A stretch of DNA of 64,000 nucleotides from an uncultured delta proteobacterium (GTDB lineage Bacteria; Desulfobacterota; Binatia; Binatales; Binataceae): positions 327,002-391,001 of the forward strand of contig CAWKCZ010000002.1 in assembly GCA_963848285.1 (NCBI GenBank). Reading direction: 5' to 3'. Positions 12,374 through 29,828 of this stretch are shown here, piece after piece; positions within the stretch are counted from its first letter, which is position 1; each line of letters starts with the position of its first letter. The position numbers and the translations under genes were made by a program. The notes below the pieces were generated by a model. That model ran no database searches and had not been told where the DNA came from. It saw only the letters and a list, made by a program, of their open reading frames with translations.

Positions 12374-13102
12374 ATGCGCCGCATGACCGTCATCGTTTTC
12401 GCGCGCGAGCCGATCCCGGGCCAAACCAAGACGCGGCTCATCCCGGCGATCGGCAAGGACTATGCGGCCGCACTCGCCGATGCGTTCAATCGCGATGCCC
12501 TCGCGAAGGCCAAACGCCTCGCGCCCGCAGAATTGGTGATCGCAGGTAGCGCTCCCGGAGGCGCCAAGCGCAGCCGTTATTTCAAAACCCTCGCGCACGA
12601 ATTCGGCGCGTGGGTCTTCGAGCAGGGCACCGGACATCTCGGCGCGCGCATGGCTGCCGCGATGCGTCCGTTCACCAATGCCGGCGGCGCTTTGCTGATT
12701 GGCACCGATACGCCCTCATTGCCGATGAAGCTGCTGACCAAGAGCGCCGACCTCTTCGAGAAGCATCCGATTGTCATCGCGCCGACCCTCGACGGCGGCT
12801 ACTACCTCGTCGCTATGCGCGGGAAGCTGGCCGACATCTTCAAGCCGATGCCTTGGGGCGGTCCGGAGGTGCTCGCGATCACGTTGCAGCGTCTGCGCGA
12901 TGCGGGAGAGCCCTACTGCCTCGGGCCATGGTGGTACGACGTCGATCGGCCGATCGACTTGCAGTTTCTCATCTCGCATTTGAAGAATCGGGTAAGCGCC
13001 TTCGGTGGCCAGGCGATGGCACTCGGATCGCCGCACCCATGCCCTGCGACCGCCGCTTTTTTGAAACGCCTCGAAAAACAAACGCCGCGTCGAGTCGCTT
13101 GA
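12374..13102 (+). CDS. DUF2064 / TIGR04282-like glycosyltransferase (arsenosugar-associated family)
   Basis: Intact 242-aa ORF: VIVFAREPIPGQTKTRLIPAIG...GALLIGTDTPSLP...APTLDGGYYLVAM...PWGGPEVLAITLQRL, the typical DUF2064 pattern. Confidence 0.75.
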   Translation: MRRMTVIVFAREPIPGQTKTRLIPAIGKDYAAALADAFNRDALAKAKRLAPAELVIAGSAPGGAKRSRYFKTLAHEFGAWVFEQGTGHLGARMAAAMRPFTNAGGALLIGTDTPSLPMKLLTKSADLFEKHPIVIAPTLDGGYYLVAMRGKLADIFKPMPWGGPEVLAITLQRLRDAGEPYCLGPWWYDVDRPIDLQFLISHLKNRVSAFGGQAMALGSPHPCPATAAFLKRLEKQTPRRVA

Positions 13103-13781
13103 AGCTGTCGGTCATCGTCCCGATGTTGAATGAGGCCGCTGCGATTAGCGGCGACCCTCGAAGCGATCCGTACCGGCGCCCGCGAAGCGGAAATAATCGT
13201 AGTCGACGGCGGCAGCACCGACGCCAGCGTCGATGTGGCGCGGCCGCTATGCGATGTGCTCATCGAATCCTCGCGCGGGCGCGCGCTACAGATGAATACC
13301 GGCGCCGCGCGCGCCTCAGGTGACGTGCTGGTCTTCGTGCATGCCGACACGATTGTGCCGCTGACCTTCGGGCGCGATATCGAAACCGCGCTCGCAGAAC
13401 TCGCAGTCGTAGGCGGCCGCTTCGATGTTAGCCTCGACGACAATCATCCTCTGTGCGTGCTGATTGGCGCGCTGATCAGCCTTCGTTCGCGCATCAGCCG
13501 CACCGGTACGGGAGATCAGGCGATTTTCGTACGGAAGCATACCTTCGAGGCTCTCGGCGGATTTCCCGATATGCCGATTTGCGAGGACCTCGATTTCGCG
13601 CGCCGGATGAAACGCGCCGGCCGCGTCGCATGCCTGCGCAGCCAGCGTGATTACCTCGGCGCGGCGATGGCGCAAGGGCGGCATCATGCGCACCGTGCTG
13701 CGGATGTGGACGATTCGATTGTTGTATCTGGCGGGCGTTTCGCCGGTGCGCCTCGCGCGCATGTACTCCGACGTTCGATGA
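13099..13781 (+). CDS. GT2-type glycosyltransferase, TIGR04283-like (about 2 frame changes)
   Basis: TTG at 13099 overlaps the upstream stop. KLSVIVPMLNEAAAI (frame of ORF 12610..13323). EIIVVDGGSTDASV, RGRALQMNTGAARASGDVLVFVHADT and TGDQAIFVRKHTFEALGGFPDMPICEDLDFARRMKRAGR (ORF 13130..14074). The third frame gives VITSARRWRKGGIMRTVLRMW, ending at TGA 13779..13781. Confidence 0.75.
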
Positions 13782-13783
13782 TC

Positions 13784-14734
13784 TCAGGCGAGCGCGCCGG
13801 AGCAACTCGAACCCGCGCCCGCCGTACATCCGAAGCAATGCGAGCCGGTTGCGATGCGCGCGCCGCTCAACTCGCCCAGATCGTTGATATCGAAAATCGT
13901 CAGCGCGCGACCGTCGTCCGTGGACAACGGCATCCCGAGCATCTGATTGAAATCGCAATCGTAAAGCGTGCCCTCGTAGCCGACGCTCACCAGGTCGCGG
14001 CACATAACGGTCGAAACCGTCGTAGGATTGAAATGATTCACCAACAGCGCCATGTAGTCTCGATCGCTCCCTGAATGCCGAAGCTGATCGGCGAAGCGCT
14101 TGATCGGCATGTTGGTAATGGTGAGCAGATGGTTGAACTCGATGCCGAAACCGTCGCGCAGCTCCTGACGATAGCGCGCTTCCAGTTCGGCCTGCGCGGG
14201 CGGCAGAAACGCGAACCGACTGGATTGTAAACGAGGTCAAGAACCAATTCGCTCCCCGCCATCCCATAACCAAGTCGATTCAAGACGCCGGAGCGCCTCG
14301 ATGCTTTTCTCGAAGACTCCCCGCCGCGTTGTTTGTCCACATTCTCGGCCGTGTAGCACGGCAGTGAGCAAACCAAGTTAGCGTGATGCTCTCGATAAAA
14401 TGCAGGCAGCCAATCCATACCCGGCTGAAAGATGACTGTGAGATTGCATCGTACGATGACATCACGTCCCAGCCGGCGCGCCGACTCGACCAGGAATCCA
14501 AAATGTTCGATTCAACTCTGGCGCGCCGCCGGTGATGTCGACGATTTCGATCGACGGGCTATGCGCGAGCAACTCGATGACTCGCTCGGCCACCCGCGAA
14601 TCCATCTTCTCGGTGCGCGCCGGACCCGCATCGACGTGGCAATGATGGCACGCCTGGTTGCACACCTTGCCGACATTGACCTGCAGCGTGCGCGGCGCGA
14701 CGCGCGTCAGCGGCGCGAGACCATGACGCTGCAA
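13784..14734 (-). CDS. arsS: Arsenosugar biosynthesis radical SAM protein ArsS-like (at least 3 frame changes)
   Basis: LQVNVGKVCNQACHHCHVDAGP holds the CxxxCxxC cluster motif at 14639..14662 (ORF 14462..14734). PCYTAENVDKQRG (ORF 14038..14418). C-terminus VSVGYEGTLYDCDFNQMLGMP...IATGSHCFGCTAGAGSSCSGALA (ORF 13784..14110). Confidence 0.8.
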
Positions 14735-14760
14735 CTCGGCGTCAAATGCGCCGGGACGTG

Positions 14761-15276
14761 CTATTTCCGAAGCGCCGCCATTAGCTCAAGCTCTTCGCGG
14801 AAATCGCGCCAGGTCGCAAGAGCGCTACTTCTGGCGCGCCAGACCAGCGGCTTCTTGCCCTGCATCATTTCCATCATGCCGGTCAACTCGATTCGCGAGG
14901 GCGTAACCAGCAGAGGCCGAAATCAGGCGACTGATGCCCGCCGGGCCAGAATTGCGCCAATTCGTAGTCAAAGACCTTCCCTTCCCAGACGCGCTTTTTC
15001 TCCGCCGGCATCGTCGATGAAACGCGCGGTGCCGGTCACCGTAAGATGAACGAAGTCGGGGCCGGCCTGGTAGAAGAGTTCGACTTTGGGATTTTTCGCG
15101 ATATGCTTGCCCTTGGCGGAATTGCCGGCCGGTCGCGATCCACAGCTTCGTCGCCTTCGAATGCCGGATGCACCACGCGCACCTTGGGCTGATCGCCCGA
15201 CCGCCGTCGCGAGGTAGGCCCAGGTGGCTTTTTTCGCAGCCTCGTGAAACTTCTGCAGGGTTTCAGCGTCGCTCAT
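14761..15276 (-). CDS. Pyridoxamine 5'-phosphate oxidase-fold protein (general stress protein 26-like), frameshifted
   Basis: MSDAETLQKFHEAAKKATWAYLATA and NPKVELFYQAGPDFVHLTVTGTARFIDD (ORF 14968..15276). Reconstructed tail ...WEGKVFDYELAQFWPGG...RIELTGMMEMMQGKKPLVWRA ends at TAG 14761. Confidence 0.5.
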
Positions 15277-15422
15277 CTCAAAATGGTCTCCTTATGGACT
15301 GGCGGCGACATTAGCGAAATTGTTCGACCGGAATCCAATCCTGTGGATATGCTGCGCCGAATAGCGGTTTGACAGTCACTACGACGGATCATTAGCCTCT
15401 CGCCTTAACGCAATTCGTAACG

Positions 15423-16057
15423 ATGGAACGTACTGAACGCCGCGCCCAGGTCCTGCGCCACGCGAAGCGAATTTTCGCGCGCAAGGGCTATCATCGCACC
15501 AATGTCGCCGACATCATTGCGCGCGCCGGCATCGCGCGCGGGACTTTCTACCTCTACTTCCAGAACAAAAGGACCTTTTCGAGGAATTGCTGGAGCAGGT
15601 GGTCTCCGAGCTCCGACGCGGATTTTGCGCCTCAAAGTAGGCACCGGGAAGACGAACCCGGTCGATCAATTGCGCGACAACCTGCGGCGCGTGGTCGGCT
15701 TCGTGCTCGCATGAACGCGAGCTCACCGACATCCTGCTTAATCATTCGGTCGGATTCGATCGCGAGCTGGATGCGAAAATTCGCGAGTTCTACGATCGCA
15801 TCGCGCAGATGATCCAGCGCTCGCTCGATTTGGGAATCGAGATGAAGCTGGTGCGCAAATGCGATACCCGCGCGGTCTCGTACTGCATTCTCGGAGGAAT
15901 CAAGGAGGTCGTCGGGGTGCTGTCCCGCACCCGTCCGCGCGATACCGAAACCTTGGTGCAGGAGATCCTCGATTTCGGGTTGCGCGGAGTCGCGCGCCCC
16001 GAACTTCTCGCAGAGATCGATCGCAATTCACAAAACGCCACGCGATGCAAAAAATGA
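15423..16057 (+). CDS. TetR/AcrR-family transcriptional regulator (about 2 frame changes)
   Basis: RAQVLRHAKRIFARKGYHRTNVADIIARAGIARGTFYLYFQNK (ORF 15423..15812) is the TetR N-terminal HTH. C-terminal ligand domain in ORF 15809..16057. Confidence 0.8.
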
Positions 16058-16084
16058 GAACCATCGGCGGGCAAGCTTTTTTTA

Positions 16085-16873
16085 TTGCCCATAACTAGAA
16101 TGACATGTCAGTTCATCGAGCAAAATCTTCTCCGCAATGGCCGCCCGCAAATGCGTCGCGCCGCATTCTATGATCTCGACGGGACCCTGGTCGATCTCAA
16201 CCTCGTCCACATCACCTTGTTCGTGCTCGCCAACCTCGGCGAATGGAGCAACCGCCTGAGCTATCTCGCGGCTTTCGCCGCGCGCGCGCCGAGACTCTAC
16301 CTCGCGGAGCAGCAGGACCGGCGCAAGCTCAACATCCTGATGTTCGAGGCGTTCAAGGGAATCTCGCGCGACCGCCTGGTCGAGCTGGGACGCGAATACT
16401 GCGAGCGCGTGCTCATCGGCCATCTCTATCCCAAGGGCATCGAACTCATCGAAGCGAACCGCCGCGCCGGCCTGGAGCCGGTGCTGGTAACCGGCTCGCC
16501 CGATTGGGTAGTTGCGCCGCTCGCGCGAGCATCTCAACATCGCGGATTTTTCCGCCAACCGGATGGCGATCAGCCGCGGCCGCGCGACCGGACGGCTGCT
16601 CGAACCGATCATGGCGACGGCGGAGAAAGCGACCTGGTGCGAGCAGTACGCCAGCCGAGCACGGCATGAAGCTCGCCGATTGTTGGGGCTATCGCGGATT
16701 CGCACTACGACTTGCCGTTTCTCACCGCGCTCGGGCATCCGGTCGCGGTGAATCCTGACAAGCGGCTGCGCGCAACTGCGATGAGCCGGCAATGGCCGAT
16801 CATCCATCTGGAAAAGAATCGCAACGGCAGCAGCATCATCGCCGACAACGTGCGGCGTCTGGTTGAGGCCTAA
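16085..16873 (+). CDS. HAD-IB family hydrolase (SerB-like phosphatase fold), about 2 frame changes; likely start at Met 16151
   Basis: MRRAAFYDLDGTLV carries the DxDxT motif (ORF 16085..16669). LVTGSPDWVVAPLA. Later frames give ADSHYDLPFLTALGHPVAVNPDKRLRA, the HAD-IB motif IV region. Confidence 0.7.
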
Positions 16874-16882
16874 GGGGAATCG

Positions 16883-18523
16883 ATGGCTCGTCCGGAAGCC
16901 AAACTAAAAGAACTAAAAACCGCCGAACTGAAGCATGAGGTCGGCGCGCGCAAGGATTTGGTCATCACGACCAATCGGCGCTCCGAGCGCCGCCTCATCG
17001 CGTATGGCGACGATTTCCTGTTCGAGAAGCTGCCGGTCGGCACCCGCGTCATTTATCCGCCGCCGCCGCTGGAGCGCTCGCCGATCCCGACCAGGCGATT
17101 CGCTACGCCCTGCTCCATCCGGAAAATGCCGATCCGCTGTTCGCGCAGCTCAATCCCAACATGCGCGTGACGATCGCGATCGACGACATCAGCCTGCCGC
17201 TGCCGCCGATGCGCCGTCCCGACATTCGCGAGCGCCTGCTCAACCAGGTGATGCAGACGCTGGCCGACTACGGCGTTGACGATGTGCATCTGATCATCGC
17301 GACGTCGCTGCATCGGCGCATGACCGAGGCCGAGATTCGCCGCATGGTGGGCGAAAAAGCCTTCAAACAGTTTTGGCCGGATCGCCTCTACAACTTCGAC
17401 GCGGAAAATCGCGCCGAGCTCACGATGATGGGCAAGACCGATCACGGCGAGGAAGTGTGGCTCTCCAAGCGCGCCGCCGACTCCGACCTGGTCATCTATC
17501 TCAACATCAACCTGGTGCCGATGGACGGCGGGCATAAGTCGGTCGCGGTCGGTCTCTCGCCCTATGCGAGCCTGCGTCATCATCACAATCCGACCACGCT
17601 GCGCGATTCGCATTCGTACATGGACCCCAATCATTCGGCGCTGCATCGCTCCGCCGATCGGATGGGACGCGTAATCAACTCGCAGCTCAATGTGTTCACG
17701 CTCGAGACCGCCGTCAACAACAACATGTACGGCGGGATGCTCGACTTCCTGCATAAGAACGAAGACCGCTTCACCGACTGGGATCACGTGCGGCTGAAGG
17801 GATTTCAGTGGACGATGCGCAATCTGTCGGACGATCTGCGCCGCCAGATGCTGCGCAACTACGCCGCGCCCTACGGCATGACGGGGATCTGGGCGGGCGA
17901 GACCGAAGCGGTCCATCGCAAGGCGCTGGCGAAAGTTTTTCAGCAATACGCGGTGCCGGTGAAGGGTCAGGCCGACATTCTAATCGTCGGCGTGCCGTTC
18001 ATTTGCCCCTACAACGTCAACTCGATCATGAATCCGATCCTCGTGCAGTGCACCGGGCTCGGCTACCTGTTCAACATGTATCGCGGCAAGCCGCTGGTGC
18101 GCGAAGGCGGCACGATCATCGTCACGCCATCCGCTGCGCGACGAGTTTCACCCCGAGCATCATCCGAGCTACATCGAATTTTTCCATCGATGCCTCGCGC
18201 AAACCACCGACGCGGTCGAGCTCGCCGATCAGTTCGAGCATGAGTTCGCGCACAATCCGACTTACATCCACATGTATCGCTACGGCAATGCCTATCACGG
18301 AGTGCATCCCTTCTACATGTGGTATTGGGGCGAGCCCGCGCGTCAGCACTGCGGACGCGTGATCGCCGCCGGATGCGAGGAGCCCGAGGTTGCCGCGCGC
18401 CTCGGATGGGAAGCTGCCGACAGTCTGGATGAAGCGATCGCGATGGCGACCTCCGAACAAGGCCGCTCCGCGAGCATCACCTACTTGCATCTGCCGCCAC
18501 TGGTAATTGCCGATGTCGAATAG
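16883..18523 (+). CDS. LarA-like (lactate racemase N-terminal domain, DUF2088) protein, about 2 frame changes
   Basis: VTIAIDDISLPLPPMRRPDIRERLLNQVMQTLADYGVDDVHLIIATSLHRRMTEAEIRRMVGE and DLVIYLNINLVPMDGGHKSVAVGL (ORF 17161..18243) match the LarA N-domain pattern. C-terminus in ORF 18272..18523. Confidence 0.65.
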
Positions 18524-21500
18524 CAACGGAAACGGAAAACTGAACGGCAAACCGCGTCCGACTCCCCCGATGCCGCCGCTGGAGCAGGTGCTCCGCAAGC
18601 GCACCATCCTGCTGACCGGCGCGACCGGATTTCTCGGCAAGGTCTTTCTCTACCTGCTGCTCGCTGGCATCCGGAAATCGAGCGCGTCTACCTGCTGATT
18701 CGCGGCGACAAGAAATCCAGCCTCAACCGCTTTCGCCGCGAGGTTCTGGATTCGCCGGTGATGGGCCCGCTGCGCGAGCAACTCGGCGACGCGCTTCGAC
18801 AAATTCATCGAAGAGAAAGTCGTCGTCATTCCCGGAGACATCACCATCGAAGGGCTCGTCGGCGACGGCGGCGATCCGATCAAACGTGGCAGCCCTCGAT
18901 GCGGTCGTGCATTGCGCCGGGATGGTGAATTTCGAGGCGTCGCTCGAGAAGGCGATTTCCGTCAACACGCTCGGCGTCGCCAACGTCATCGAATACTGCA
19001 AGAAGCACGACGCCGCGATGATGCACGTCTCGACCTGCTATGCGGCCGGCGTCGCCGACGGGCATCGCTACGAAGACGACATCGCGGAAAACTGGTGCCC
19101 GATCGGCAAGCGCAACTTCAACCTGCAGCGCGAGATTCGCGAGGCGCTGGCCACCGTCGCGCGCATCGAGGCGGAATCGCGCGACCAGCTTCGCCAGGCG
19201 GAATTGATCCGGCGACGATCGAAATCGAAGCCAGTCAGCGACGACGAATCGCAAAATGGCGATGCTCATCCGCTCGCCGACGGACGCCGCAAGCGATGGG
19301 TCGATGAGCGCCTCAAGGAAGTCGGCAAGGCGCGCGCGCTCAGTTGGGGATGGCCCAACACTTACAGCTACACCAAGAGCCTCGGCGAGCAGTTGGTGTT
19401 TGCGGAGCGCAACAATCTCGAACGTCACCGTCGTGCGTCCCGCGGTCATCGAGAGCGCGCTCGCCGATCCGTTCCCCGGATGGAATCAGGGCGTCAACAC
19501 CAGCGCGCCGCTCACGTATCTCTCGGGGCGTGGCTATCGCTTCTATCCGGCAAGCGCCGAACTGGTGCTCGATATCATCCCGGTCGACCTCGCCGCGCAC
19601 GCGATGATTCCGATCCTCGCGGCACTGCTCACCAAGCGTCATCGCCCGGTCTACCAGCTCTGCACCTCCGATGTGAATCCGCTGCCGATGCGCCGGCTGG
19701 TCGAGCTGACCGCGCTCAGCAATCGCCGCGAGCATCGTAAGGAAGGCGGGGTGATGGCGAAGATCGGCCCGCACATCGAGTCGGTGGTCGTCTCGCAGAG
19801 CACCTACGACCTCGCGAGCGAAACGATGCCGCGCGTGATGAAGTATGCGGCCTCATTCGCACGCAGCGTGCTCGGCGAGGATTCGGCGCCCGCGCGAAAA
19901 ATTCGAAAGCACGGTCGACTGGATCGCGGAAGACATGGACCTCGCGCGCGAGATGATCGAGGTCTATCGCCCCTACATCCAGGAGCTAATTTATACATTT
20001 CCACGGCAACAACGTCCGCGAGCTGTACGCTGCACTGAAGCCGGCCGACGCCGTGCGCCATCCGTTCCGGCCCGACCAGATCGATTGGGCCGATTACTGG
20101 ATCAATGTGCATCTGCCCGGACTGCGACGGCACATTTTTCCGCAGCTCGATTTGCATACCAAGGGGCGGCCCGAATCTGCTCAAGCGCCATCGCTCGCTG
20201 GTCGCGATGCTCGACAACGCCGCCGACCGCTATGGATCGACGCGTCGCGCTGGTCGCGCGTCAGCCGTCCGGGCAGAAAACCAACCTGACCTATCGCGAG
20301 TTGCGCGACAGTGCGCATCGCGCGGCGCTGCTGCTGCTGAGCCGCGGCGTCAAGCCCGGCGATCGCGTGTTGCTCATCGGCGAGAACTCGCCGGATTGGG
20401 TGTTGGCGTTTTTCGCCATCGTATGCGCGGGCGCGGTTGCGGTTCCGCTCGATCATCAGATTTCTGCCGAGGAGCTCGCGCCGATTTGCGCGATTGCCGA
20501 GCCGACTGCTGCGCTGCGGTCGAACGCGACGGCGCAACGCCTCGAGGACGGGATCGCGGCGGACGGTCCCTGGAATCATCGAAATCGACTTCGCGGAGTT
20601 GTCGCGTCCATTCATCCTCGAAGAAAGGCGATCACCGCCGACGCCCGAGCCCGATCGCAAGGCGCTCGCCTCGATCGTCTTCACCTCGGGTACCACTGGC
20701 GCGCCCAAGGGCGTGATGCTCACGCACGGTAATTTCACCGCCGAGATCCAGATGCTCGGGCGCGTGTTCTCGCTCTCCGAGCGACGACCTGGTGCTCTCG
20801 CTGCTGCCGCTGCATCACACCTTCGAGTTCACTTGTGGGATGCTGCTGCCGATCGCGAGCGGCGCGACCATCGCCCATCCCGATCGGCGTCGATGCGAAG
20901 AATCTCTCGCGTACGCTGGCGGACCTGCGGCCCACCGCGCTCATCGGCGTGCCTGCGCTATGGGAAGCGATCCACCGCCGCATCCTCGATGAGATCGAAT
21001 CGCACGGCCCGTTCTTTCATGCCGCGTTTCAATCAGCTCCGCGAGCTCAACCAGCGGCTCATTCGCGATTCCGGGATCAATCTCGGTTCGATCATGTTTC
21101 CGCCAGGCGCATAGCGCCCTCGGCGGACGCCTGAAGCTCGCAGTTAGCGGCGGCGCCGCGCTGCCGAAACGGGTCGCGGATTTCTTCAAAGACATCGGGA
21201 TGCCGTTGCTCGAAGGCTACGGCCTTACCGAGGCGCGCCGGTGGTCAGCGTCGCGCATCCGGGCGAGACGAGCATCGCCGGTTCGGTTGGCAAACCGCTC
21301 TCGAAGCTCGAAGTCAAGCTCGCCGGCGAGGGTGAGGTCGGCGAGTTGCTGGTGCACGGCCCCAACGTAATGGAGGGCTACTATCGCAATCAGGCCGCGA
21401 CCGATGCGGTGCTGAAGGACGGCTGGCTTCACACCGGCGACCTCGGCCGCTTCGACAGCGAGGGGCGACTCTACATCGTCGGACGCGCCAAGGACGTCAT

Positions 21501-22910
21501 CGTCGATGCGGGCGGCAACAACATCTACATCGATGAGGTCGAAGAAGTTATACGCGCACAAATCCGACATCAAAGAGATGGCGGTGGTCGGGATGAAGCT
21601 GGGCGGCGGCGAGCAGCCTGCCGCGCTGGTGGTTCCGGCTTATGGGCGCGGCACCAGCCGGCGCACCCTCGAGGATCGGCTGCGCACGCATTTCGAGAAA
21701 GTCAGCGCCGTCGCTGAGCCCGCACAAGCGGATCAGGATTCTGCGCTTTACCGATCACGAATTGCCGCGCACTCGCACGCGCAAGGTCAAGCGCAACGAG
21801 GTTGTCGCGATCCTGCGCCAAATGCTCGAGGCGCGCGCCGGAGGAGACAAGCCTCCGCCAGCGCCGAGGTCGAGAAGTGGCTTGCGCATGCGATCGCGCA
21901 GGTTTCCAACGAAGCCACTCATATCACGCCCGCGACGCGACTCATCGAGGACCTTGGGCTCGACTCACTCGCGCTGGCGGAACTGGCTGAACATATCGGC
22001 GAGCATCTTGGACGCGATATCGCGGCCGAGGAGCTGGGGGATCTTCGTACCGTTGACGATCTGCAGAAGCTTGCGGCGAACAGCAAGGCTCCCGCGCGTA
22101 TTGCGATGCCCTCCTATGCGAAATTCGCGGAGCCCTTCACTCCGCATGCTTCCCGGCCCGCTGAAGAGCTCTGGGCCGCGCGCTGTTCCGCCGCGCGCAG
22201 AGCGCGGTCTTCGATTCATGGCTGAAGCCGCAAATCCTCGGACGCGGCAACATTCCCGCGAATTCGAACGTGCTGGTGGTCGCCAATCATTCGAGCCACG
22301 TCGATTTCGCGCTCATCAGTCATGCGCTCGGCGAGATGGGCAAAGGCCTGGTCGTGTTGGCCGCCAAGGATTACTTCTTCAACACGCCGACGCGGCGCTT
22401 CGTGGTCTCGAATCTCACGACGCTAATCCCGTTCGATCGCGAGCGGGCGCAACTCGAATCGCTCGACGAGGCACTGGCTGAACTTGCTGCCGGCCGCAGC
22501 GTGCTGCTGTTCCCCGAAGGAACCCGCTCGCCCGACGGCACCATGCAGGAATTCAAGAGCGGCGCCGGATATCTCGCGCTGCGCAGCGGATGCGAAGTTT
22601 TACCGATTCACATCAGCGGGCACTTATCGACGTGCTGGGCAAGGGCAAGCCTGATTCCGCGCTATCATCCAGTCGAGATGCGCATCGGGCGGGTGGTCTC
22701 AAATGCCGAACTGCGCGATCGTCGCGGAAAGCTTCCGAGGGCGCGGGTGCGTATCGTAAGGCCTCCGACTTCCTGCGCAAGACGGTCGAGGACCTCGCGC
22801 ATCCGCAAAAGCGGGCCCCTCAACGAACCTCGCGCAAACTCGCCGCGGATGCTCACGAAGCAGCGCCGGTCGAGAAAAACTCACGGGCGCGGCGCCACGC
22901 CAAGGGCTAG
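18507..22910 (+). CDS. Multidomain lipid enzyme: FAR-type NAD(P)-reductase + acyl-AMP/CoA ligase + ACP + PlsC-type acyltransferase (ElbD-like), split over ten or more frames
   Basis: Rossmann TGATGFLG at 18615..18638. YSYTK (YxxxK) at 19363..19377. AMP-binding core [11 protein letters not shown] at 20680..20712, plus [29 protein letters not shown] and [10 protein letters not shown]. Phosphopantetheine site GLDSL at 21956..21970. Acyltransferase HSSHVD (HX4D) at 22288..22305 and FPEGTRS at 22510..22530. Start is TTG 18507 or ATG 18513. End taken from ORF 22590..22910. Confidence 0.8.
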
Positions 22911-22917
22911 GCATCGG

Positions 22918-23776
22918 CTGCTGCGGTATCGACGTCATATCGCGCTGGTGTTGAGTGCGATGACGATCGCGATCGGTGCGAGATCCGCGAGTGCGTGGGA
23001 CAGCGCGACGCATCGGGCGATTGCGCGACTCGCAGTGGAGGCGCTTCCGCTCTCGCCGCTTAAAACTACACTCACACGCGACCAAACCGCATTGGAAGTG
23101 CATGCGGTTGAACCGGATTCCGTCCTCAAAAAGCGCTATGGCAAGGCCGAGGATCGTCGGCACTATATCGATTCAGAAATCTTCGGCAGCGATCCGTGGT
23201 CCGTGCTCGATCCTGATTTCGACAAAGATGCGCCGCCGTTTCGGCGAACATAAACTCGCACGCGCGGGAACCCTGCCGTGGACCATCGAAGCCGTCAGCG
23301 ATCAACTCGAGGACGCGTGGCGCCGCAACGACTGCGAGGCAGTGATCCGCCTTTCCGGCTACCTGGCGCATTACGTGGGCGATGCCAGCCAACCGCTTCA
23401 TTCGACGATCAAATACGATGGCTATCCTCGCGACCGCGGGATGCATGCGCGCATCGAGCTCGCAGTCGACCACTCGCTCGGCGAGCTTGAGCCGGTCGCC
23501 CATCAAGAGATTCACCTCGAAGATATCAACGACGTATGGACTCCGGTCATCGCCGAGATTCGTGACGCGAACGGGCTGGTCGGCAACGTCATCCGCGATG
23601 ACCGAGCGGCGCGCGACGCCGGCGACTACTCGGGGCGCGACTATCAGCGCGCGGTGATGCATGAGGACCGCGCAATGTTCGCGCATCAAATCGCGCGGGC
23701 AGCATCCGTGCTCGCGTCGATATGGCTCTATGAATGGCATCGCGCAGGCTCCCCTTCCACATGCGCGGCAAAGTAG
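22918..23776 (+). CDS. Secreted zinc-dependent phospholipase C / S1-P1 nuclease superfamily protein (one frame change; start uncertain)
   Basis: Signal-like RRHIALVLSAMTIAIGARSASA is followed by WDSATHRAIARLA (tail of ORF 22270..23253). GTLPWTI and LSGYLAHYVGDASQPLHSTIKYDG...GMHARIE (ORF 22976..23776). Confidence 0.5.
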
Positions 23777-23833
23777 CGCGATTTCCTAATGGTTCAGTAA
23801 CATCGCCATTCATGGTTAGATGACGGCAGTGGA

Positions 23834-24356
23834 TTGGTGGCAAAACCGCTCGCAGAACGAGGCACGCGCCCATCGCGCGACCGCCCCTCACTTGCCGAAA
23901 TCACCAGCCAGCTGCTCATCGGCGAATATCCCCGCCCGGACGACATCGGATGGCTGAAGGATGCCCATCGCATCACTGCGGTGCACAACCTTCAGGATGA
24001 CGACGATCTGCGGCTGCACGGCCTTGACCTTCAGGCGGTGCGCGCCGAATGCCACGCCAACGGTATTTCGTTCGTCCGCACCCCGATCCAGGACGGGAGC
24101 GCCGACGCGATGGGTGAGCGGCTGCGAGTCGCGATCGACGATCTCCATTCCCTGATTGCAGGCGGTAAGCGAGTCTATCTTCATTGCAACGCGGGACTCA
24201 ATCGCGCGCCGACGCTCGCCATCGGCTATCTGCGCGCGCACGGAAAAATGTCGCTCGACGAGGCGGTCGCGCACGTTAAGAAAGCATCGCGCGTGCGGAC
24301 CGTTCATGACGATCCTCGAAGACTACTTCGGCCCGCGTCACATCAAGCCGAAATGA
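23834..24356 (+). CDS. Dual-specificity (Cys-based) phosphatase, one frame change near the 3' end
   Basis: The HCNAGLNR CX5R active-site loop is at 24182..24205 (VYLHCNAGLNRAPTLAIGYL, ORF 23834..24547). The tail in ORF 24156..24356 ends at TGA 24354..24356. Confidence 0.75.
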
Positions 24357-25114
24357 AAGCGCGCGCGGTATCAGCTACGGCGATGGCCGAGACCAATGGC
24401 GGCCGCCTGTTTCTGCTGGTGTGCGCATGGGGTGTGCATCTGTATACCGCGCTCGGGCGCGGTCTTCGGCGTGCTGGCGATTCACTACGCCGGCATCGGC
24501 GACTATCGCGCATCGTTCATCGCGATGGCGGTAACCATCGCGATTGATTCCAGTGACGGCACACTTGCGCGTTACTTCAACGTCAAAAAACGCGTGCCCG
24601 GCTTCGATGGCGCGTTGCTCGACAACATCGTTGACTATCTGACTTACGTGGTCGCGCCGGTGTTCCTGGTGATCCGCGCCGCAATGGTTACCGGAACCGC
24701 CGGATTTGCGGTCGCGGGCTTCGTGCTGATCGCGAGCGCGTATCAATTTTGTCAGGCCGACGCCAAGACCGACGGACCACTTCTTTCTCGGATTTCCTTC
24801 GTACTGGAATCTGGTCGTTTTCTATCTGTACTGCCTGCACTGGGGAGCGACTGCCAACGGGGTGGTGCTCGTTCTCTTTCGCCGTGATGGTGTTCGTACC
24901 GATCAAGTACATTTATCCGAGCCGCACCAAACCTCTTCGCCCACTCACAGTCACGCTCGGGATAATCTGGGGAGTCATCACGATCGCGATGCTGCCTGCG
25001 CTTCCAGTGGTTAATCCGATCCTGCTCTACCTGTCGCTCTCCTACATCGCGTACTATTTCATCGCGTCGTTCGCGCTGCATGCGCGCGCGCTGACGACGC
25101 GCCCGGCCTCATGA
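24353..25114 (+). CDS. pcs: Phosphatidylcholine synthase (CDP-alcohol phosphatidyltransferase family), about 2 frame changes
   Basis: The ATG at 24353 overlaps the phosphatase stop (ATGA). CAWGVHLYTALG. CDP-alcohol motif DSSDGTLARYFNVKKRVPGFDGALLDNIVD at 24546..24635. My translation gives AKTDDHFFLGFPSYWNLVVFYLY, then VFVPIKYIYPSRT (ORF 24749..25114). Confidence 0.75.
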
Positions 25115-25122
25115 GCGAATAG

Positions 25123-25870
25123 ATAAATCCCGCGATCTCGCCGCCCGGTCCATGGCTGGAAATCCTGGAGGGTGATGCTCCGATTCTCCTGATCGCTCCG
25201 CATGGCGGCCGCGCGGGACAGGCGACCCGCGCAATGCTCAATCCCAAGGTCAATGATCTCCACACCGCCGCGATTACCCGCGAGCTGGCTGCGATGTTGA
25301 ATGCGCCTGCGCTGATCAACGCGCGCGATGGATCGCAATCATCTCGATCTCAACCGGCTTTCGCAGGTAAGCGCGAACGCTCCGTGGTTTCTCGAAATGA
25401 TTCTCGAACGCCTGGCTGCCATCGTCGCGCGCCATCGGTCATGCGACGATTCTTGTTGTCCACGGATGGAATGTTATCCAGGCGCGCGTCGATCTCGGGT
25501 CTGGGATTGCGCCGACATGGCGAGCAATTGCGGCCGCCCGGCGCCGCGCGAGTGTCAGCCTCCGATGCGTTCATCCATGGCCCGCTCGGCGACCTCGTTG
25601 CGCAACTCGGTCAGCGATGGAATCCTCGCCAGCTTCGGGCTGCGCTATCCGGGCGGTGGCGCACAAAATCTCTTGCAGGCGTTTACCGATCGCCATCTGG
25701 AAAGTCCGATTGCAGCGTTGCGCGAACTTTCCGCGATGGCAGCGCGCGATCAGATCGATGCGGTGCAATTGGAGCTTTCGGTCGCTTTGCGTATGCCGGG
25801 CGAACTTCGCCGCCGCTGCATCGCATGCGATCGGCGAGGTCTTCGGCGATGCGACGCGAGGCCTTCGACG
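25123..25870 (+). CDS. N-formylglutamate amidohydrolase-like (FGase fold) domain, several frame changes; no clear start codon
   Basis: My translation gives PILLIAPHGGRAGQATRAMLNPKVNDLHTAAITRELAAML. Then MDRNHLDLNRLSQV...TILVVHGWN and ILASFGLRYPGGGAQNLLQAF...IDAVQLELSVALRMPG (ORF 25328..26062). Confidence 0.4.
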
Positions 25871-26716
25871 AGCGCTCCGCTCGAGCGCAAACTGGTGGTC
25901 GTTCGTTCGCCGACTCCCAAAGCCTGCGACAACTCTGCAAAGCCGCCGCGGCGCCGGCCAGTGCCGACCGGGTCGGAATCGAACTTTTCGACCCTCCGCG
26001 CAAAATCGGTGCGATGGCGAGCTTCGATCTCGGTGCCGGAGGCGTCGGCGCGCGCATCATGATGCTGCTCAGCGGAGGTCGCGTCGCGCTGTTCACCGGT
26101 GAAGGCAAACCAAGACGCGACGGTAATCGCCTCAGCCTCGGTCCGCTCGCGCTCGAATCGCAGGGCGGCGAGATGTTGCTCAGCTTTCACGGACACGCGG
26201 TGATCGTGCCGGACGCGACGCATTATCTCAGCATCGAGCGCGCGCTGGCTTCCGGATGGCTCGACGAATCGATGGAGGTGGCGATTCGGTTGCGTCCCGG
26301 TAGCGCGGCAACGCCGGATTCGACCTCGAGCAACTCTTCGAGGCGAGCGACGAAAGCAAGCGCAGGCTCGGTTGCGCACTTCGGAAAGCTCAGCGGTCGG
26401 CGTGTATCGATGGGGTCGCGTCTGAAATCAGCGGCGTCGGCCGCAGCGGGTCTCTCATTCACCGGGCTCGGGTCCGCAACGCTTCAACTCGCGCAGAATG
26501 ATCTGGGCTTGCTTCGATGATGAGTCCGCGCCCGATCGCAATCGAGATGCGCTCGGTCTCGCGGCGAAGACAGGAGACAGCGCAGCGGTCGGATTTTGCG
26601 CAGCGACGGGATGGACGCCGTGCGCGGTCGATCAGCTCGAGGTCGAGCGCCGTCAGTCTCGATCGCCGCCGACTCGCCTGTCGGCGAAACTCGCGGACAC
26701 GCACGCATCATGCTGA
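25870..26716 (+). CDS. Hypothetical domain or protein, possibly fused to the FGase-like region; frames unresolved
   Basis: GIELFDPPRKIGAMASFDLGAGGVGARIMMLLSGGRVALFTGEGKPRRDGNRLSLGPLALESQGGEMLLSFHGHAVIVPDATHYLSIERALASGWLDESMEVAIRL (ORF 25234..26520) looks protein-like, but I recognise no family. Confidence 0.3.
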
Positions 26717-26967
26717 TGCGGCGCGGTCGAGAATTTCATTCCACTCTCGCGTCCCGGACCCGATGGCGCCCGAATTTTCACTGCGCTCGGTTTTGCGCGC
26801 TTCAGATTGGGCGACCTCGGAAGGCGCGGGAATGTTCGAATACTCGCGCCGGCCGAAGTGCTGCCGGATTCGATGGGCGACGATGACGCCGAAGACTGAA
26901 GCGCGCTCGGGCGAACTAGCTTTGACGCGCCGCCGACGGCGATGCGGCGCCTCGCTGGCCGGCGCGG

Positions 26968-27838
26968 CTAGCTTTGCGAATTCTCGCGGTTAGCATCGCC
27001 ATCGATTTGACGCGCCATCTCGATCAATTGCTTTCCAATCGGCGCATCGGCAAATTCGCTGACGAAAATCCGTCCGCGATCCGAAGATTCCGCAAAGCGC
27101 GGATCGAACGGCAGCCGCGCGACAATGGGAAGGTTCGGCCTCGCGCGCGATGCGGCTGCTCTCGCCCTGCGGGAAACAGCGGACGCACCGAGCGGCAGTT
27201 GTCGCATCCGAAGGCCACCATGTTTTCGATCGCACCAACGATGGGCGCGGCGATCTCCTTGTTCATATCGAGCGCATGGCGGATGGCGGCCGCGGCGCCT
27301 CCCGAGGTATGCGTTACCAGGATCACGCCGGTAGGGGTGAAGATGCCGCATCATTCGATAGCAGCTCTTCGATGCCGGGCGCGAGATCGATGATGAGCAG
27401 GTCGAGCGGTCCGAAGCGAGTCTGGCTCAGCATGCGGCGCAGTGCGGTCGAATGATTAAGTTGGATGCGGCGGCGCTTCGCAACCGGCGCGGGCGTCGAC
27501 TCCTCATCGAGGAAACTCATCGCCGGGCCGCTGCGCTTCGGTCAGCAGCTCGGCCGAGGCGACCCGAATTCCGAGCGGCGCCGGCGGCTGGCTCGATTCC
27601 CTCGCTCGAAAGGTAACGCAGCGGCGGCCTTGGTTCCGAGCATCTGCAGGATACTGGGTGCGTTGAGATCGGCGTCCATGATGCCGACTTTCTTGCCCGC
27701 GTGCGCCAGCGCGCCCGCGATATTCACCGCGAGCAGGCTTTTGCCGGTACCGCCCTTGGCGCTCGCAAGCACGAGCGTAGCCTTGACCGAGGCGAGATTT
27801 CGCAGGAATCGACTCCGGGTCGTGGTGCGGTTTTTCAC
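26968..27838 (-). CDS. Mrp/NBP35 (ApbC)-type P-loop ATPase, at least 3 frame changes
   Basis: LASAKGGTGKSLLAVNIAGALAHAGKKVGIMDADLNAPS is the deviant Walker A (ORF 27542..27838). LDLLIIDLAPG (ORF 27323..27520). GAIENMVAFGCDNC is the CxxC motif (ORF 27024..27326). LPFDPRF...IGKQLIEMARQI (ORF 26968..27354). Confidence 0.7.
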
Positions 27839-27933
27839 CCGTGCCGTTGCTGGCCGTGTTCCTCGAATTCGCTAAAAACCCTCATCAAGTCGATACGCTG
27901 CTTTTCGAAACGAGCGCCCCATGCAAACAGAAA

Positions 27934-28000: not shown

Positions 28001-28454
28001 TCACATGTTCTCTTCGTCGCCGTCGGTCGAGCCGACCTTGCGATACCCGCGGTCTTCGCTGTCGTAGTTGCGTTGCGATTTGGCTTCGCGCTCGCGATCC
28101 TGCTGGCAGTCGCGGCAAACGCGCGTGAACGGAAGCGCATCGAGGCGTTCTTCGCCGATTTCCAACCCGCACGATTCGCAAATGCCATAGCTCCCGTCGG
28201 CCAGCCGCGCCAGCGCATCATCGATTTCCTTGATCTTCGCGCGCTCGCGATCCGACAGGATGAAGTTGATCTCGCGGTCGCGCTCTTCGGAGGCGAGGTC
28301 GTAGGCGTCCATGCCCTCGTCCTTGTTGCCCTCGCGCTGCGCCTTTTGCTCGGTATCCATTTCCTCGAGCAGCTTGCGATTTGGTCTCGAGCATTTGCGC
28401 GCGAACCTTGTTGAGAAATTGGTTGCGGCTCACGTCAGCAGCTTTCTTAGGCAT
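28001..28454 (-). CDS. DksA/TraR-family C4 zinc-finger protein (one frame change)
   Basis: MPKKAADVSRNQFLNKVRAQMLE (ORF 28218..28508). ERAKIKEIDDALARLADGSYGICESCGLEIGEERLDALPFTRVCRDCQ carries the CxxC-N17-CxxC finger (ORF 28001..28360). Confidence 0.8.
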
Positions 28455-28482
28455 GATTGGCCACTCTCTTCTCGATATCCGC

Positions 28483-29828
28483 TTAACTCGGGGCAACGAC
28501 TCGTCCACTCAGATCGTAGGTCAGCGCCTTGTCGATACGAACCTGCACGAATTCGCCGGGGGTGGCTTCGCCCTTGAGAAATACCGAGCCATCGATCTCG
28601 GGAGCCTGCGACTGGCTGCGCCCGCGCATCCGCGTGGCGCGGCCCGGGAATAGCGACCTTCAACCAGACACTTCGATTTCGCGGCCGACGCAGGACACGA
28701 TTTTTCTTGAGCGAAATCTCTCCCTGAAGTTCCATCAGACGCGCGCGGCGTGCGCGCTTGACTCGCTCCGGAACCTGATTGCGGCAGGTCGAACGCCGCG
28801 GTGTTCTCCTCCAACGAGTAGGTAAACACGCCAACCCGATCAAATTCCTGCTCGCGGATGAAACCGGCCAGATGCCGCGAATGCCTCGTCGGTCTCGCCC
28901 GGAAATCCGACGATGAAGGAGCTGCGCAGCGCGATGCCGGGCACGCGCTTGCGGATGCGATCGAGTATTTTGCGCAGCGCTTCGCCCGAGCGCTCGCGGC
29001 GCATCGCGCGCAGGATGGCATCATCGGCATGTTGCAGCGGCATGTCGATATACTTCGTGACCTTCGGCAGCGCCGCGATCGCATCGAGGAGCTCATCGGT
29101 CACGAAGTTGGGATAGCAGTAGAGCAGCCGAATCCAGTGGATGCCGTCGACGTCGTTCAGTGCGTACAGCAGCTTCGCGAGCGACGACGGCGTATCGAGG
29201 TCGCGCCCATAGGCGGTCAGATCCTGCGCGATGAGGTTCAATTCGCGCACACCGCCGGCGGCAAGCATCCGCGCCTCGGCGACGAGGTCGTGCGATCGGG
29301 CGGCTCTCATGACGGCCGCGAATCTTCGGAATGATGCAGAACGCGCACTTGTGATTGCATCCTTCGGAAATCTTCAGGTACGAGGTGAAATAGTCGCCGG
29401 TCTTGATGCCGCGGCGCCGAATGCGACGGCAGCAGATGCGCCGCGCCGGCGTAGGGAATCGGGCGCTCCTCGGGCGCCTCGGTGCGGCGCAGCAGTTCCG
29501 GCAGCTCGAGGAAGTTTCCGGTCCCGACGAACACATCGACCTCCGGAATCTGCTCGCGCAGCTCGGCGCCATAGCGCTGCGCCATGCATCCCGCGACTAC
29601 GAGCCGCTTGCCGAGGCCGTGGCGCTTGACCTCGGCGGCCTCCATGACCGCGTCGAGCGATTCCTTCTTCGCGCTCTCGATAAAGGCGCAGGTGTTCACG
29701 ACGAGGACTTGCGCCTCATCGGGATCGAGCGTGACCTCGAATCCGGCGCCGACCAGCGCACCGAGCATCAGCTCGCTGTCGGCGAGATTCTTGGGACAAC
29801 CCAAACTGAGAAGATGAACTTTTTCCAT
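28483..29828 (-). CDS. rimO: Ribosomal protein S12 methylthiotransferase RimO (at least 4 frame changes)
   Basis: [25 protein letters not shown]...VVNTCAFI (ORF 29307..29828). Radical SAM motif [18 protein letters not shown] (ORF 29093..29572). [19 protein letters not shown] (ORF 28840..29310). TRAM-like end ...[14 protein letters not shown] to TAA 28483..28485. Confidence 0.85.

Follow-up and report, generated by a model that had tools for sequence, protein, structure and literature searches.

The region is best read as an operon of eight genes, headed by tetR, on the chromosome of an uncultured soil member of the Binataceae (Binatota). On balance, we consider it probable that the operon directs the co-regulated synthesis of alkyl-ether glycerolipids and phosphocholine head groups, plausibly giving ether-linked phosphatidylcholine (ether-PC), and that the frameshifts interrupting its genes are errors. 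The 5' half corresponds to the core that elb ether-lipid clusters of other bacteria have conserved, and the 3' half is specific to Binataceae among the loci compared and lies at the position taken elsewhere by elbE.

Gene order, junctions and upstream region

The whole stretch of DNA analysed (64 kb, hereafter the window) contains the following features of the locus.

15369..15397, plus strand: promoter-like element 5' of tetR (-35 TTGACA at 15369-15374; conserved CATTAGCC block at 15390-15397)
15405..15420, no strand assigned: imperfect palindrome TTAACGCAATTCGTAA, candidate TetR operator, 3' of the promoter and 5' of the tetR ATG
15423..16098, plus strand: TetR-family regulator, first operon gene (at least 3 frameshifts; TetR_N, E = 4e-17; TetR_C_24)
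16105..16873, plus strand: ElbB-type HAD-IB phosphatase, DxDxT (at least 3 frameshifts; PF12710, E = 1e-29)
16883..18523, plus strand: ElbC-type protein of the LarA superfamily (nickel-pincer nucleotide family), 546 aa (2 frameshifts; Lar_N)
18513..22910, plus strand: ElbD megaenzyme, about 1450 aa (about 22 frame changes; Pfam domains on the stitched protein)
18513-20175 (approximate), plus strand: FAR-type reductase domain of ElbD (NAD_binding_4/Sterile)
20192-21851 (approximate), plus strand: acyl-AMP ligase domain of ElbD (AMP-binding)
21866-22144 (approximate), plus strand: ACP domain of ElbD (PP-binding)
22165-22722 (approximate), plus strand: AGPAT-type acyltransferase domain of ElbD (Acyltransferase)
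22930..23776, plus strand: tri-zinc phosphodiesterase of the phospholipase C (PLC)/P1 nuclease fold, accessory (start uncertain; 1 frameshift)
23820..24356, plus strand: Cys-based dual-specificity-type phosphatase, HCNAGLNR (1-2 frameshifts; DSPc, E = 1.6e-14)
24353..25114, plus strand: Pcs-family CDP-alcohol phosphatidyltransferase (phosphatidylcholine synthase-like; at least 2 frameshifts)
25111..26899, plus strand: eighth gene, 593-aa two-domain protein (heavily frameshifted; tblastn against the L004 protein)

An earlier note on this DNA had listed seven co-directional plus-strand genes at 15423-25114. These seven were recovered in the order claimed, with family calls made on frame-stitched proteins, but none is an intact reading frame in the window, and the list was incomplete, the eighth gene (25111-26899) having been overlooked. 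The number of frame changes that stitching took was 3 for TetR and likewise for the HAD protein, 2 for the LarA-like protein, about 22 (at least 20) for the megaenzyme, 1 for the PLC-like protein, 1 (1-2) for the phosphatase and 2 (or more) for pcs.

The junctions along the locus are short or overlapping. The 9-nt spacer between the HAD and LarA-like genes (16874-16882) and the ATGA overlap of the phosphatase gene with pcs (24353-24356) were found as described, and the overlap of the LarA-like gene with the megaenzyme gene, previously given as 11-17 nt, is 11 nt (18513-18523). The start of the eighth gene forms a second ATGA overlap, with the pcs stop. Two spacers had to be revised. The 27 nt given between tetR and the HAD gene resulted from a frameshift; homology puts the end of TetR at 16098 and the HAD ATG at 16105, which leaves 6 nt. 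The spacer of about 7 nt after the megaenzyme gene does not hold either: the megaenzyme stop lies at 22908-22910, and the start of the PLC-like gene is ambiguous, with homology from 22939 and candidate in-frame starts at 22948, 22951 and 22960.

Upstream of tetR, TTTGACA was invariant across six aligned related upstream regions; the promoter-like element at 15369..15397 was not called by a simple sigma-70 scan. TTCGTAA-containing repeats resembling TTAACGCAATTCGTAA occur at the equivalent place in two related loci (L003 and L009), and we only infer that this palindrome may be the TetR operator. The operator site previously proposed at 16058-16084 falls within the tetR coding region, since by homology that gene runs to 16098. 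Relatives carry an intact tetR of 215-226 aa at the equivalent position, and the C terminus of the window TetR (AFFIAHN, then the stop) agrees with that of L004, an intact relative.

The equivalent gene array was found intact in 17 non-redundant Binataceae loci, a recurrence that makes it more than a chance arrangement. ElbD and the Cys-phosphatase were each encoded in 15/15 of these loci, Pcs in 14/15 and the HAD protein in 17/17. As expected of the single operon claimed earlier, the block behaves as a conserved unit across the Binataceae loci compared, and its co-transcription is predicted from spacing and conservation only.

The ElbB, ElbC and ElbD homologues

The earlier note left open whether the myxobacterial elb cluster also has the HAD and LarA-like partners. 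It does, as elbB and elbC, respectively. The Myxococcus xanthus order is elbB (HAD), elbC (unknown), elbD and elbE (NAD-epimerase), and elbE affects ether-lipid yield there (PMC9131029). In the window, as in 17/17 Binataceae loci, the HAD and LarA-like genes lie immediately upstream of the megaenzyme gene; a HAD gene also directly precedes the LarA homologue in 48/60 other loci. Corallococcus, Anaeromyxobacter, Pyrinomonadaceae and Gemmatimonadales all have the HAD, LarAH and ElbD genes side by side, with ElbE following in 32/35 loci, which agrees with the M. xanthus order; the triad is found in both Myxococcota and Acidobacteriota. Identities to the Corallococcus orthologues were 39% for ElbB, 54% for ElbC and 38% for ElbD.

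Compared with M. xanthus elbABCDE (MIBiG BGC0000871; Lorenzen et al. 2014, as given in PMC9131029 and PMC13012113), the Binataceae operon has the elbB-elbC-elbD order and the ElbD architecture in common but is headed by a TetR gene, has no elbA or elbE (SDR) at the locus or in the window, and carries three to four 3' additions (the Cys-phosphatase, Pcs, the FGase/AttH protein and, in some loci, a Zn phosphodiesterase). A tblastn search of the 64-kb window with Corallococcus ElbE gave no match at E <= 0.01. Across loci, elbE was present in 0/15 from Binataceae versus 32/35 from other phyla, whereas the phosphatase gene was present in 15/15 versus 0/35; only Binataceae loci had genes for TetR, the Cys-phosphatase, Pcs and the 593-aa protein or for the optional Zn phosphodiesterase. 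The elb-like clusters of Acidobacteriota (subdivision 4/Pyrinomonadaceae) and sponge symbionts likewise have the elbB-elbC-elbD core in common, but in the Pyrinomonadaceae loci ElbE is retained, and none of the Pcs, phosphatase and 593-aa genes lies within 10 kb.

The megaenzyme, called ElbD-like in the earlier note, is an ElbD orthologue. Pfam places the FAR, ACS, ACP and AT domains in that order within one protein, both in the window protein and in Corallococcus ElbD, and intact homologues of the megaenzyme are 1437-1471 aa long (88% identity). Aligned end to end with the ElbD of Corallococcus llansteffanensis, which served as the reference in place of M. xanthus ElbD, the intact L004 orthologue was 38% identical over 1455 columns (E = 0). 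In M. xanthus ElbD, fatty-acid adenylation and loading of its own ACP have been demonstrated, and the reductase and acyltransferase activities never have (PMC9131029). By analogy, the adenylation domain would activate a fatty acid and load it onto the enzyme's own ACP, the FAR-type domain would then presumably reduce the thioester, and the AGPAT-type domain would presumably act on a glycerol-phosphate backbone. ElbB and ElbC, judged by synteny, may be fixed partners of ElbD in the ether-forming steps.

The window HAD protein scored 105 bits against TIGR01490 (cut-off, 98.3). The LarA-like protein scored 832 bits against NF052592 (LarAH14/15/16; cut-off, 740) and matched 9q2u/9q3k, a [quoted passage not shown], in a PDB profile comparison (E = 9e-68). 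Its membership in the LarA superfamily is further indicated by H144, K219 and H235, which are at least 90% conserved and align with LarA His108, Lys184 and His200; we take Lys184 to be the cofactor-tethering residue and His200 to bind nickel. The second catalytic His of two-base racemisation (LarA His174) was absent from the alignment of 10 family members, the aligned residue being Asn or Thr in 9/10 and Arg in the divergent P0121, in an HMM alignment that may slip by a few residues. ElbC also differs from LarA in being about 120 residues longer and in its genomic context, which is one of lipid synthesis rather than of hydroxy-acid metabolism. LarAH14 was inactive on the 2-hydroxy acids tested (Desguin et al. 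2020, PMC7583248), and elbC was still marked "unknown" in a 2022 review (PMC9131029). No other protein of the locus is as constrained as ElbC, which is also the most conserved in every elb locus examined. The idea of ElbC as a catalyst of the ether pathway was prompted by this top conservation and by the absence, by alignment, of the second racemase His.

The genes downstream of elbD

The PLC-like protein had been assigned a head-group step, but its gene is accessory rather than part of core biosynthesis, because only 7/15 Binataceae loci carry it. Its scores were 33.8 bits for Zn_dep_PLPC (cut-off, 26.8) and 29.6 bits for S1-P1_nuclease (cut-off, 29.5, thus barely above), and its HYVGDASQPLH (HYxGDxxQPxH) and H..E segments align with Bacillus cereus PLC. 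In the window protein, as in 7/7 relatives, a hydrophobic leader ends immediately before a Trp, so that the predicted tri-zinc ligands include an N-terminal Trp that would be exposed on signal-peptide cleavage. Because of this signal-peptide-like N terminus the protein is probably exported, with lipid or nucleic acid as the candidate substrate.

The Cys-phosphatase has the HCx5R loop and the DSPc fold, and no hydrophobic leader or signal peptide is visible at its N terminus. Its nearest solved relatives are the plant glucan phosphatases LSF2 (E = 7e-22) and SEX4 rather than lipid phosphatases, and the lipid head-group role suggested for it is not supported.

The assignment of the last of the seven genes to the Pcs family was borne out by NCBIfam and by the JGI label of its homologues (phosphatidylcholine synthase). 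Five NCBIfam Pcs models matched at E = 7e-61 to 5e-35, the Legionella Pcs model at 7e-61 over nearly the full length, and were favoured over pssA (1e-9). All five scores lay below the respective equivalog cut-offs (best, 205.9 bits versus 440 for NF045886), which is weak evidence against membership because the models are clade-specific. The motif DSSDGTLARYFNVKKRVPGFDGALLDNIVD fits DGx2ARx12Gx3Dx3D, the x12 spacing of which we take to be typical of Pcs. The enzymes of Sinorhizobium, Legionella, Pseudomonas and Borrelia have the family and the extended motif in common with it; the window Pcs differs in sitting in an ether-lipid operon, translationally coupled to the phosphatase and the 593-aa protein.

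The 593-aa protein has an FGase-fold N terminus and an AttH/CrtC-like beta-barrel C terminus (AlphaFold pLDDT, 82; Foldseek matches, 9g4c, 2ich, 7a0t and 2q7s), along with a weak DUF7064 match. AttH-like hydratases work on ether-lipid tails (bioRxiv 10.1101/2025.10.20.683597), and the modelled barrel points to a hydratase or lyase of lipid tails. In the proposed scheme, Pcs, coupled to the Cys-phosphatase, would most likely join a CDP-activated glycerolipid (ether-linked or diacyl) to choline to form the phosphatidylcholine (PC) head group, the 593-aa protein, coupled to Pcs, could act on the lipid tails as such a hydratase or lyase, and about half of the lineages would add the probably exported tri-zinc phosphodiesterase.

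Alternative readings and significance

Ether-PC as the specific product is something we infer from sequence. Counted against an ether-PC operon are the absence of elbE from locus and window, the Pcs score (206 bits against a cut-off of 440) and the glucan-phosphatase-like character of the phosphatase. Moreover, the "complete module" of the earlier note cannot be upheld, elbE being missing from 15/15 Binataceae loci and from the 64-kb window and no cdsA-type step being encoded among the eight genes.

A less likely reading, although one that deserves weight, is that two independent modules share one transcript without any deliberate synthesis of ether-PC. The elbBCD genes would then make ether lipids of the neutral or PE type, like those of myxobacteria, and the phosphatase, Pcs and 593-aa protein, with or without the phosphodiesterase, would serve choline salvage and PC synthesis on diacyl CDP-diacylglycerol (CDP-DAG), possibly from external PC by way of phosphocholine and choline back to PC. 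Pcs enzymes do use the general CDP-DAG pool and free choline, the phosphodiesterase is optional and bears a signal-peptide-like leader, and no elb locus outside Binataceae has the 3' genes, which means that the elb core can do without them. However, in 14 of the 15 Binataceae loci for which enough sequence is available, the two halves adjoin and run in the same direction behind a single TetR gene, and this holds even where ElbD identity is 57%; the 3' half lies exactly at the elbE position of other phyla, and no locus of this sample has both elbE and the 3' half; and the phosphatase, having no visible signal peptide, would have no access to periplasmic phosphocholine.

A bolder version of the ether-PC reading, which we regard as rather unlikely, holds that ElbC is the catalyst still missing from aerobic, AGPS-independent ether-lipid synthesis and that the 3' genes replace ElbE, giving a self-contained ether-PC route. 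The nickel-pincer cofactor of ElbC could transiently oxidise the C2 hydroxyl of acyl-glycerol-phosphate, which would allow exchange with a fatty alcohol or aldehyde, and ElbC would then reduce the product back.

It is more doubtful still that the Binataceae ElbD-like enzyme, lacking ElbE, yields fatty aldehydes or alcohols and esters such as wax esters or acylglycerols instead of ether lipids. FAR-type domains in other systems produce fatty alcohols for wax esters, elbE is missing, and neither the FAR nor the AT activity of ElbD has been demonstrated biochemically (PMC9131029). Nevertheless, the four-domain architecture is identical to that of ElbD and homologous end to end, ElbC is under the strongest constraint at the locus, and synteny with elbB and elbC is kept, both of which accompany elbD in phyla with reported ether lipids.

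The frameshifts are most likely sequencing errors rather than gene decay, because they are mostly single-base insertions, affect housekeeping genes too and leave ElbC with high amino acid identity. Against L004, the window showed 140 indel events in 12.9 kb, with 82 single-base insertions versus 26 single-base deletions, and the events listed lay mostly outside homopolymer runs; parA, miaB and ftsK in the window had an indel density equal to that of the operon. ElbC was 95-99% identical to L004 in amino acids over its three HSPs at 92% nucleotide identity, and the stitched proteins keep all catalytic motifs, including DxDxT, HCNAGLNR and the Pcs motif. That the locus is a decayed pseudogene cluster with genuine frameshifts is therefore highly improbable, even though all genes of the block are interrupted, the more so as in-frame stretches remain highly identical and the genes are intact in all relatives examined.

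Bacterial ether lipids bear on membrane biology, on the "lipid divide" debate and on soil and sediment lipid biomarkers, and the aerobic elb pathway still awaits a solution of its enzymology. That elb clusters can have varying head-group neighbours is, as a general idea, already published. In the sections consulted of bioRxiv 10.64898/2026.06.23.733905, CDP-alcohol phosphatidyltransferase neighbours are described for some sponge-symbiont elb clades, and elbD homologues and alkyl-ether lipids with phosphocholine head groups are reported for subdivision-4 Acidobacteria; no description of the phosphatase-Pcs-FGase/AttH trio was found in those sections, nor any report of elbD or ether lipids in Binatota in the literature searched. 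New here, as judged from gene content, is the joining of the elb core to a Pcs gene set in Binataceae, a variant of the known cluster. The elb core is extended to Binatota, a widespread uncultured soil phylum, and elbC, its most constrained part, is placed in a specific LarA (nickel-pincer) subfamily. The lineage-specific swap of elbE for the phosphatase-Pcs-FGase/AttH set provides a hypothesis joining ether backbones to phosphocholine head groups. If ElbC were indeed the catalyst and the ether-PC route real, the abundant soil Binatia would be an unrecognised bacterial source of ether lipids.

Gene content of the operon and its frameshifts

The operon region lacks a long intact ORF: its plus strand carries fragments that overlap one another and use each of the three frames, and seven proteins were stitched across reading frames before family assignment. 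Frequent indels, mostly single-base insertions, apparently break essentially every gene across the window, housekeeping genes included, and any ORF-based reading of the window requires frameshift-tolerant methods.

Genes of the operon and its flanks (window coordinates)
12374-13102, plus strand: DUF2064 gene, upstream neighbor
13130-13778, plus strand: family-2 glycosyltransferase, upstream neighbor
13787-14779, minus strand: radical SAM + DUF3641 protein, upstream neighbor
14830-15276, minus strand: PNPOx-like protein, upstream neighbor divergent from tetR
15423-16098, plus strand: tetR (TetR_N and TetR_C_24)
16105-16873, plus strand: elbB, HAD (PF12710; TIGR01490, HAD-IB, above its cut-off)
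16883-18523, plus strand: elbC, LarA homologue (Lar_N; NCBIfam NF052592 "LarAH14/15/16 family," 832 bits versus a cut-off of 740)
18513-22910, plus strand: elbD, about 1440 aa (NAD_binding_4/Sterile, AMP-binding(+C), PP-binding and Acyltransferase, in that order)
about 22930-23776, plus strand: PLC-like gene (marginal matches to Zn_dep_PLPC and S1-P1_nuclease)
23820-24356, plus strand: phosphatase gene (DSPc)
24353-25114, plus strand: pcs, CDP-alcohol phosphatidyltransferase (best matches, five Pcs models, E values 7e-61 to 5e-35, all under their cut-offs)
25111-26899, plus strand: eighth gene, encoding a 593-aa protein
26916-27885, minus strand: parA, broken by indels
28450-29828, minus strand: miaB, broken by indels
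30582-32698, minus strand: ftsK, broken by indels

All catalytic motifs were found in the stitched proteins, including DxDxT, HCNAGLNR and DGx2ARx12Gx3Dx3D. In the corrected gene map, the 9-nt spacer between the HAD and LarA-like genes, the 11-nt overlap of the latter with the megaenzyme gene, and the ATGA overlap of the phosphatase gene and pcs were as an earlier note had described them. The 27-nt spacer claimed between TetR and HAD was a frameshift artifact near the 3' end of tetR, the true spacer being 6 nt. The pcs stop and the start of the eighth gene also overlap as ATGA, and parA, on the opposite strand, converges immediately past 26899.

The window was colinear with the metagenomic contig L004, an intact relative, across 12.9 kb at 83% nucleotide identity. 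Relative to L004, there were 140 indel events in the window, comprising 82 single-base insertions and 26 single-base deletions among others; most of the events listed lay outside homopolymer runs, and the downstream parA, miaB and ftsK genes were damaged likewise. ElbC shared 95-99% amino acid identity with its L004 counterpart over three HSPs, at 92% nucleotide identity. The stitched megaenzyme had hundreds of intact homologues of 1410-1490 aa, the best at 88% identity, and all of those that were named came from Candidatus Binataceae or Binatus. The indel pattern, the damage to parA, miaB and ftsK, and the very high in-frame conservation fit an unpolished assembly rather than gene decay as the source of the operon frameshifts.

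Conservation and upstream region in Binataceae

An intact array, TetR-HAD-Lar_N-ElbD-[S1-P1/PLC]-DSPc-(244-252 aa)-(592-596 aa), was present in contigs with 67-88% ElbD identity, and 3' of it, on the opposite strand, Binataceae relatives carry parA, dksA, miaB, lolA and ftsK. Among 17 nonredundant Binataceae-type loci, for which denominators vary since some contigs end early, HAD was found in 17/17, ElbD and the phosphatase each in 15/15, and Pcs in 14/15, the single locus without Pcs stopping at a contig edge. The PLC-like gene (7/15) was either present or cleanly missing at loci that are colinear in other respects, and the alignment of the window with the related locus L009 was interrupted in this region, at 22791..23787 (L009 15882-16033). 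At another related locus, L010, about 1.9 kb of different sequence lies between ElbD and the PLC-like gene.

Upstream of tetR, alignment of six related loci revealed an invariant TTGACA at 15369-15374 and a conserved CATTAGCC block common to the same loci, with an imperfect palindrome between these elements and the tetR ATG. Simple promoter and terminator scans yielded about as many hits as shuffled sequence does and did not pick out the conserved -35. We infer that both halves of the operon are cotranscribed from a promoter upstream of tetR. The TetR operator previously proposed at 16058-16084 falls within the tetR coding sequence once the frame is corrected. The upstream neighbors at 12374-15276 are conserved in related Binataceae contigs. 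Farther upstream, at 9651-10927 on the minus strand, three tandem domain copies ending in DPFGxxWYIAT resemble VOC/glyoxalase-type (PhnB-like) units, either repeats or paralogues, as judged from translation alone.

Orthology of the 5' half to elbBCD

The Myxococcus xanthus operon comprises elbA (NAD-epimerase), elbB (HAD), elbC (unknown function), elbD (FAR-ACS-ACP-AT) and elbE (NAD-epimerase) (PMC9131029), and both alkyl and vinyl ether lipids of this organism need elbD (PMC9131029; PMC13012113). The LarA-like family was searched over one genome per species with a profile from a 10-sequence alignment, since the diversity of a 37-sequence LarAH alignment made it unsuitable for a genome scan. 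The family was found in Binataceae, Myxococcota (Corallococcus, Anaeromyxobacter, Minicystis and Polyangiaceae), Acidobacteriota (mostly Pyrinomonadaceae, i.e., subdivision 4), Planctomycetota and Gemmatimonadales. Among 68 non-Binataceae loci, a HAD gene lay immediately upstream of the LarA-like gene in 48/60, an ElbD homologue downstream of it in 38/47, and an ElbE-type SDR after ElbD in 32/35. Four ORFs of Corallococcus llansteffanensis have exactly the published elb domain content, and the ElbD of this species shares 38% identity with the Binataceae megaenzyme in an end-to-end alignment. The HAD protein, the LarA-like protein and the megaenzyme are therefore ElbB, ElbC and ElbD, respectively. 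The earlier note had left open whether the HAD and LarA-like partners are shared with the elb cluster, which they are, and its ElbD-like assignment of the megaenzyme was borne out by architecture, homology and synteny. No paper linking Binatota to elbD was found in the literature searched.

ElbE was absent from 15/15 Binataceae loci and throughout the 64-kb window. HMMs built from the Binataceae PLC-like, phosphatase, Pcs and 593-aa proteins had no match within 10 kb of elbC at the 68 non-Binataceae loci, the TetR HMM had two weak matches only, and tblastn placed none of these five proteins near elbC in non-Binataceae loci. ElbE and the Binataceae 3' genes were thus mutually exclusive in the examined sample. 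The elbB-elbC pair, apparently the most stable unit, occurred without elbD within 10 kb at eight loci of Myxococcota and Planctomycetota (L020, L025, L029, L039 [Minicystis rosea], L041, L049, L054 and L060), in agreement with a published remark that elbD/elbE may be unlinked from elbB/elbC. At the Gemmatimonadales locus L061 (7557-15468), the region downstream of elbC holds ElbD-like reductase and acyltransferase sequences and the region upstream just a weak ligase-like match (26% identity), possibly an ElbD variant that has been split or rearranged.

No other gene of the locus was nearly as constrained as the one for ElbC (16883-18523), its neighbors being clearly more diverged relative to L004. 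Across phyla, ElbC was also the most conserved of the three proteins, with a median identity of 56%, compared to 42% for ElbB and 35%, 42% and 39% for the reductase, ligase and acyltransferase domains of ElbD. Among solved structures, ElbC is best matched by [quoted passage not shown] of about 500 aa (9q2u/9q3k and 9q3j; profile E value, 9e-68). LarA His108, Lys184 (the cofactor tether) and His200 (Ni binding) are kept in ElbC as H144, K219 and H235. The position aligned with the second catalytic histidine of LarA, His174, is Asn or Thr in 9/10 aligned members. LarAH14, the tested member of the same NCBIfam group, was inactive on every 2-hydroxy acid tried (PMC7583248). These observations suggest that ElbC may be a nickel-pincer enzyme other than a simple racemase. 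A 2022 review still termed ElbC a protein of unknown function (PMC9131029), and the figure legend of a 2026 PNAS paper gives no function for it (PMC13012113).

The 3' proteins and the proposed lipid products

In 7/7 relatives and in the window, the PLC-like protein has a hydrophobic leader that ends right before a Trp. The mature N-terminal Trp binds zinc in the tri-zinc PLC/P1 nuclease fold, which the leader boundary fits, and the HYxGDxxQPxH and H..E segments align with Bacillus cereus PLC. These features indicate that the protein is probably exported, with lipid or nucleic acid as its putative substrate. No hydrophobic leader was visible at the phosphatase N terminus. The closest solved relatives of the phosphatase are the plant glucan phosphatases LSF2 (7e-22) and SEX4 (1.6e-8), and the match to the lipid phosphatase PTPMT1 was marginal (E value, 0.0056). 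Since LSF2 and SEX4 match far better and Pcs models are clearly the closest ones to the synthase, a PTPMT1-like phosphatidylglycerophosphate phosphatase acting with a "Pcs" that makes a phosphorylated head group was not supported. The x12 motif spacing of the Pcs-like protein is what we take to be the extended form typical of Pcs; its homologues are named phosphatidylcholine synthase by JGI and family member only by NCBI.

Homologues of the 593-aa protein were named only as hypothetical, and all organism-labeled matches were from Binataceae or Binatus. Sequence and profile searches of the PDB were without a match, and the fold search alone was informative. The AlphaFold model (pLDDT, 82; pTM, 0.84) has two domains, an N-terminal N-formylglutamate-amidohydrolase fold (2q7s) and a C-terminal AttH/CrtC-like barrel matching 25-phosphosteroid lyase, AttH, kievitone hydratase and Fsa2/Phm7 proteins. 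AttH-like enzymes hydrate double bonds of lipophilic substrates, archaeal ether lipids included (bioRxiv 10.1101/2025.10.20.683597).

By analogy with myxobacteria, the elbBCD half would build alkyl-ether glycerolipid backbones, to which Pcs would add a choline head group. The main rival explanation is that the phosphatidylcholine half acts on ordinary diacyl lipids and is merely coregulated with elbBCD. Ether-linked phosphatidylcholine has some precedent in that, according to a preprint, ether lipids of subdivision-4 Acidobacteria carry phosphocholine head groups and CDP-alcohol phosphatidyltransferase genes neighbor the elb clusters of sponge symbionts (bioRxiv 10.64898/2026.06.23.733905). 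Ether-phosphatidylcholine would be among the products of the Binataceae operon.
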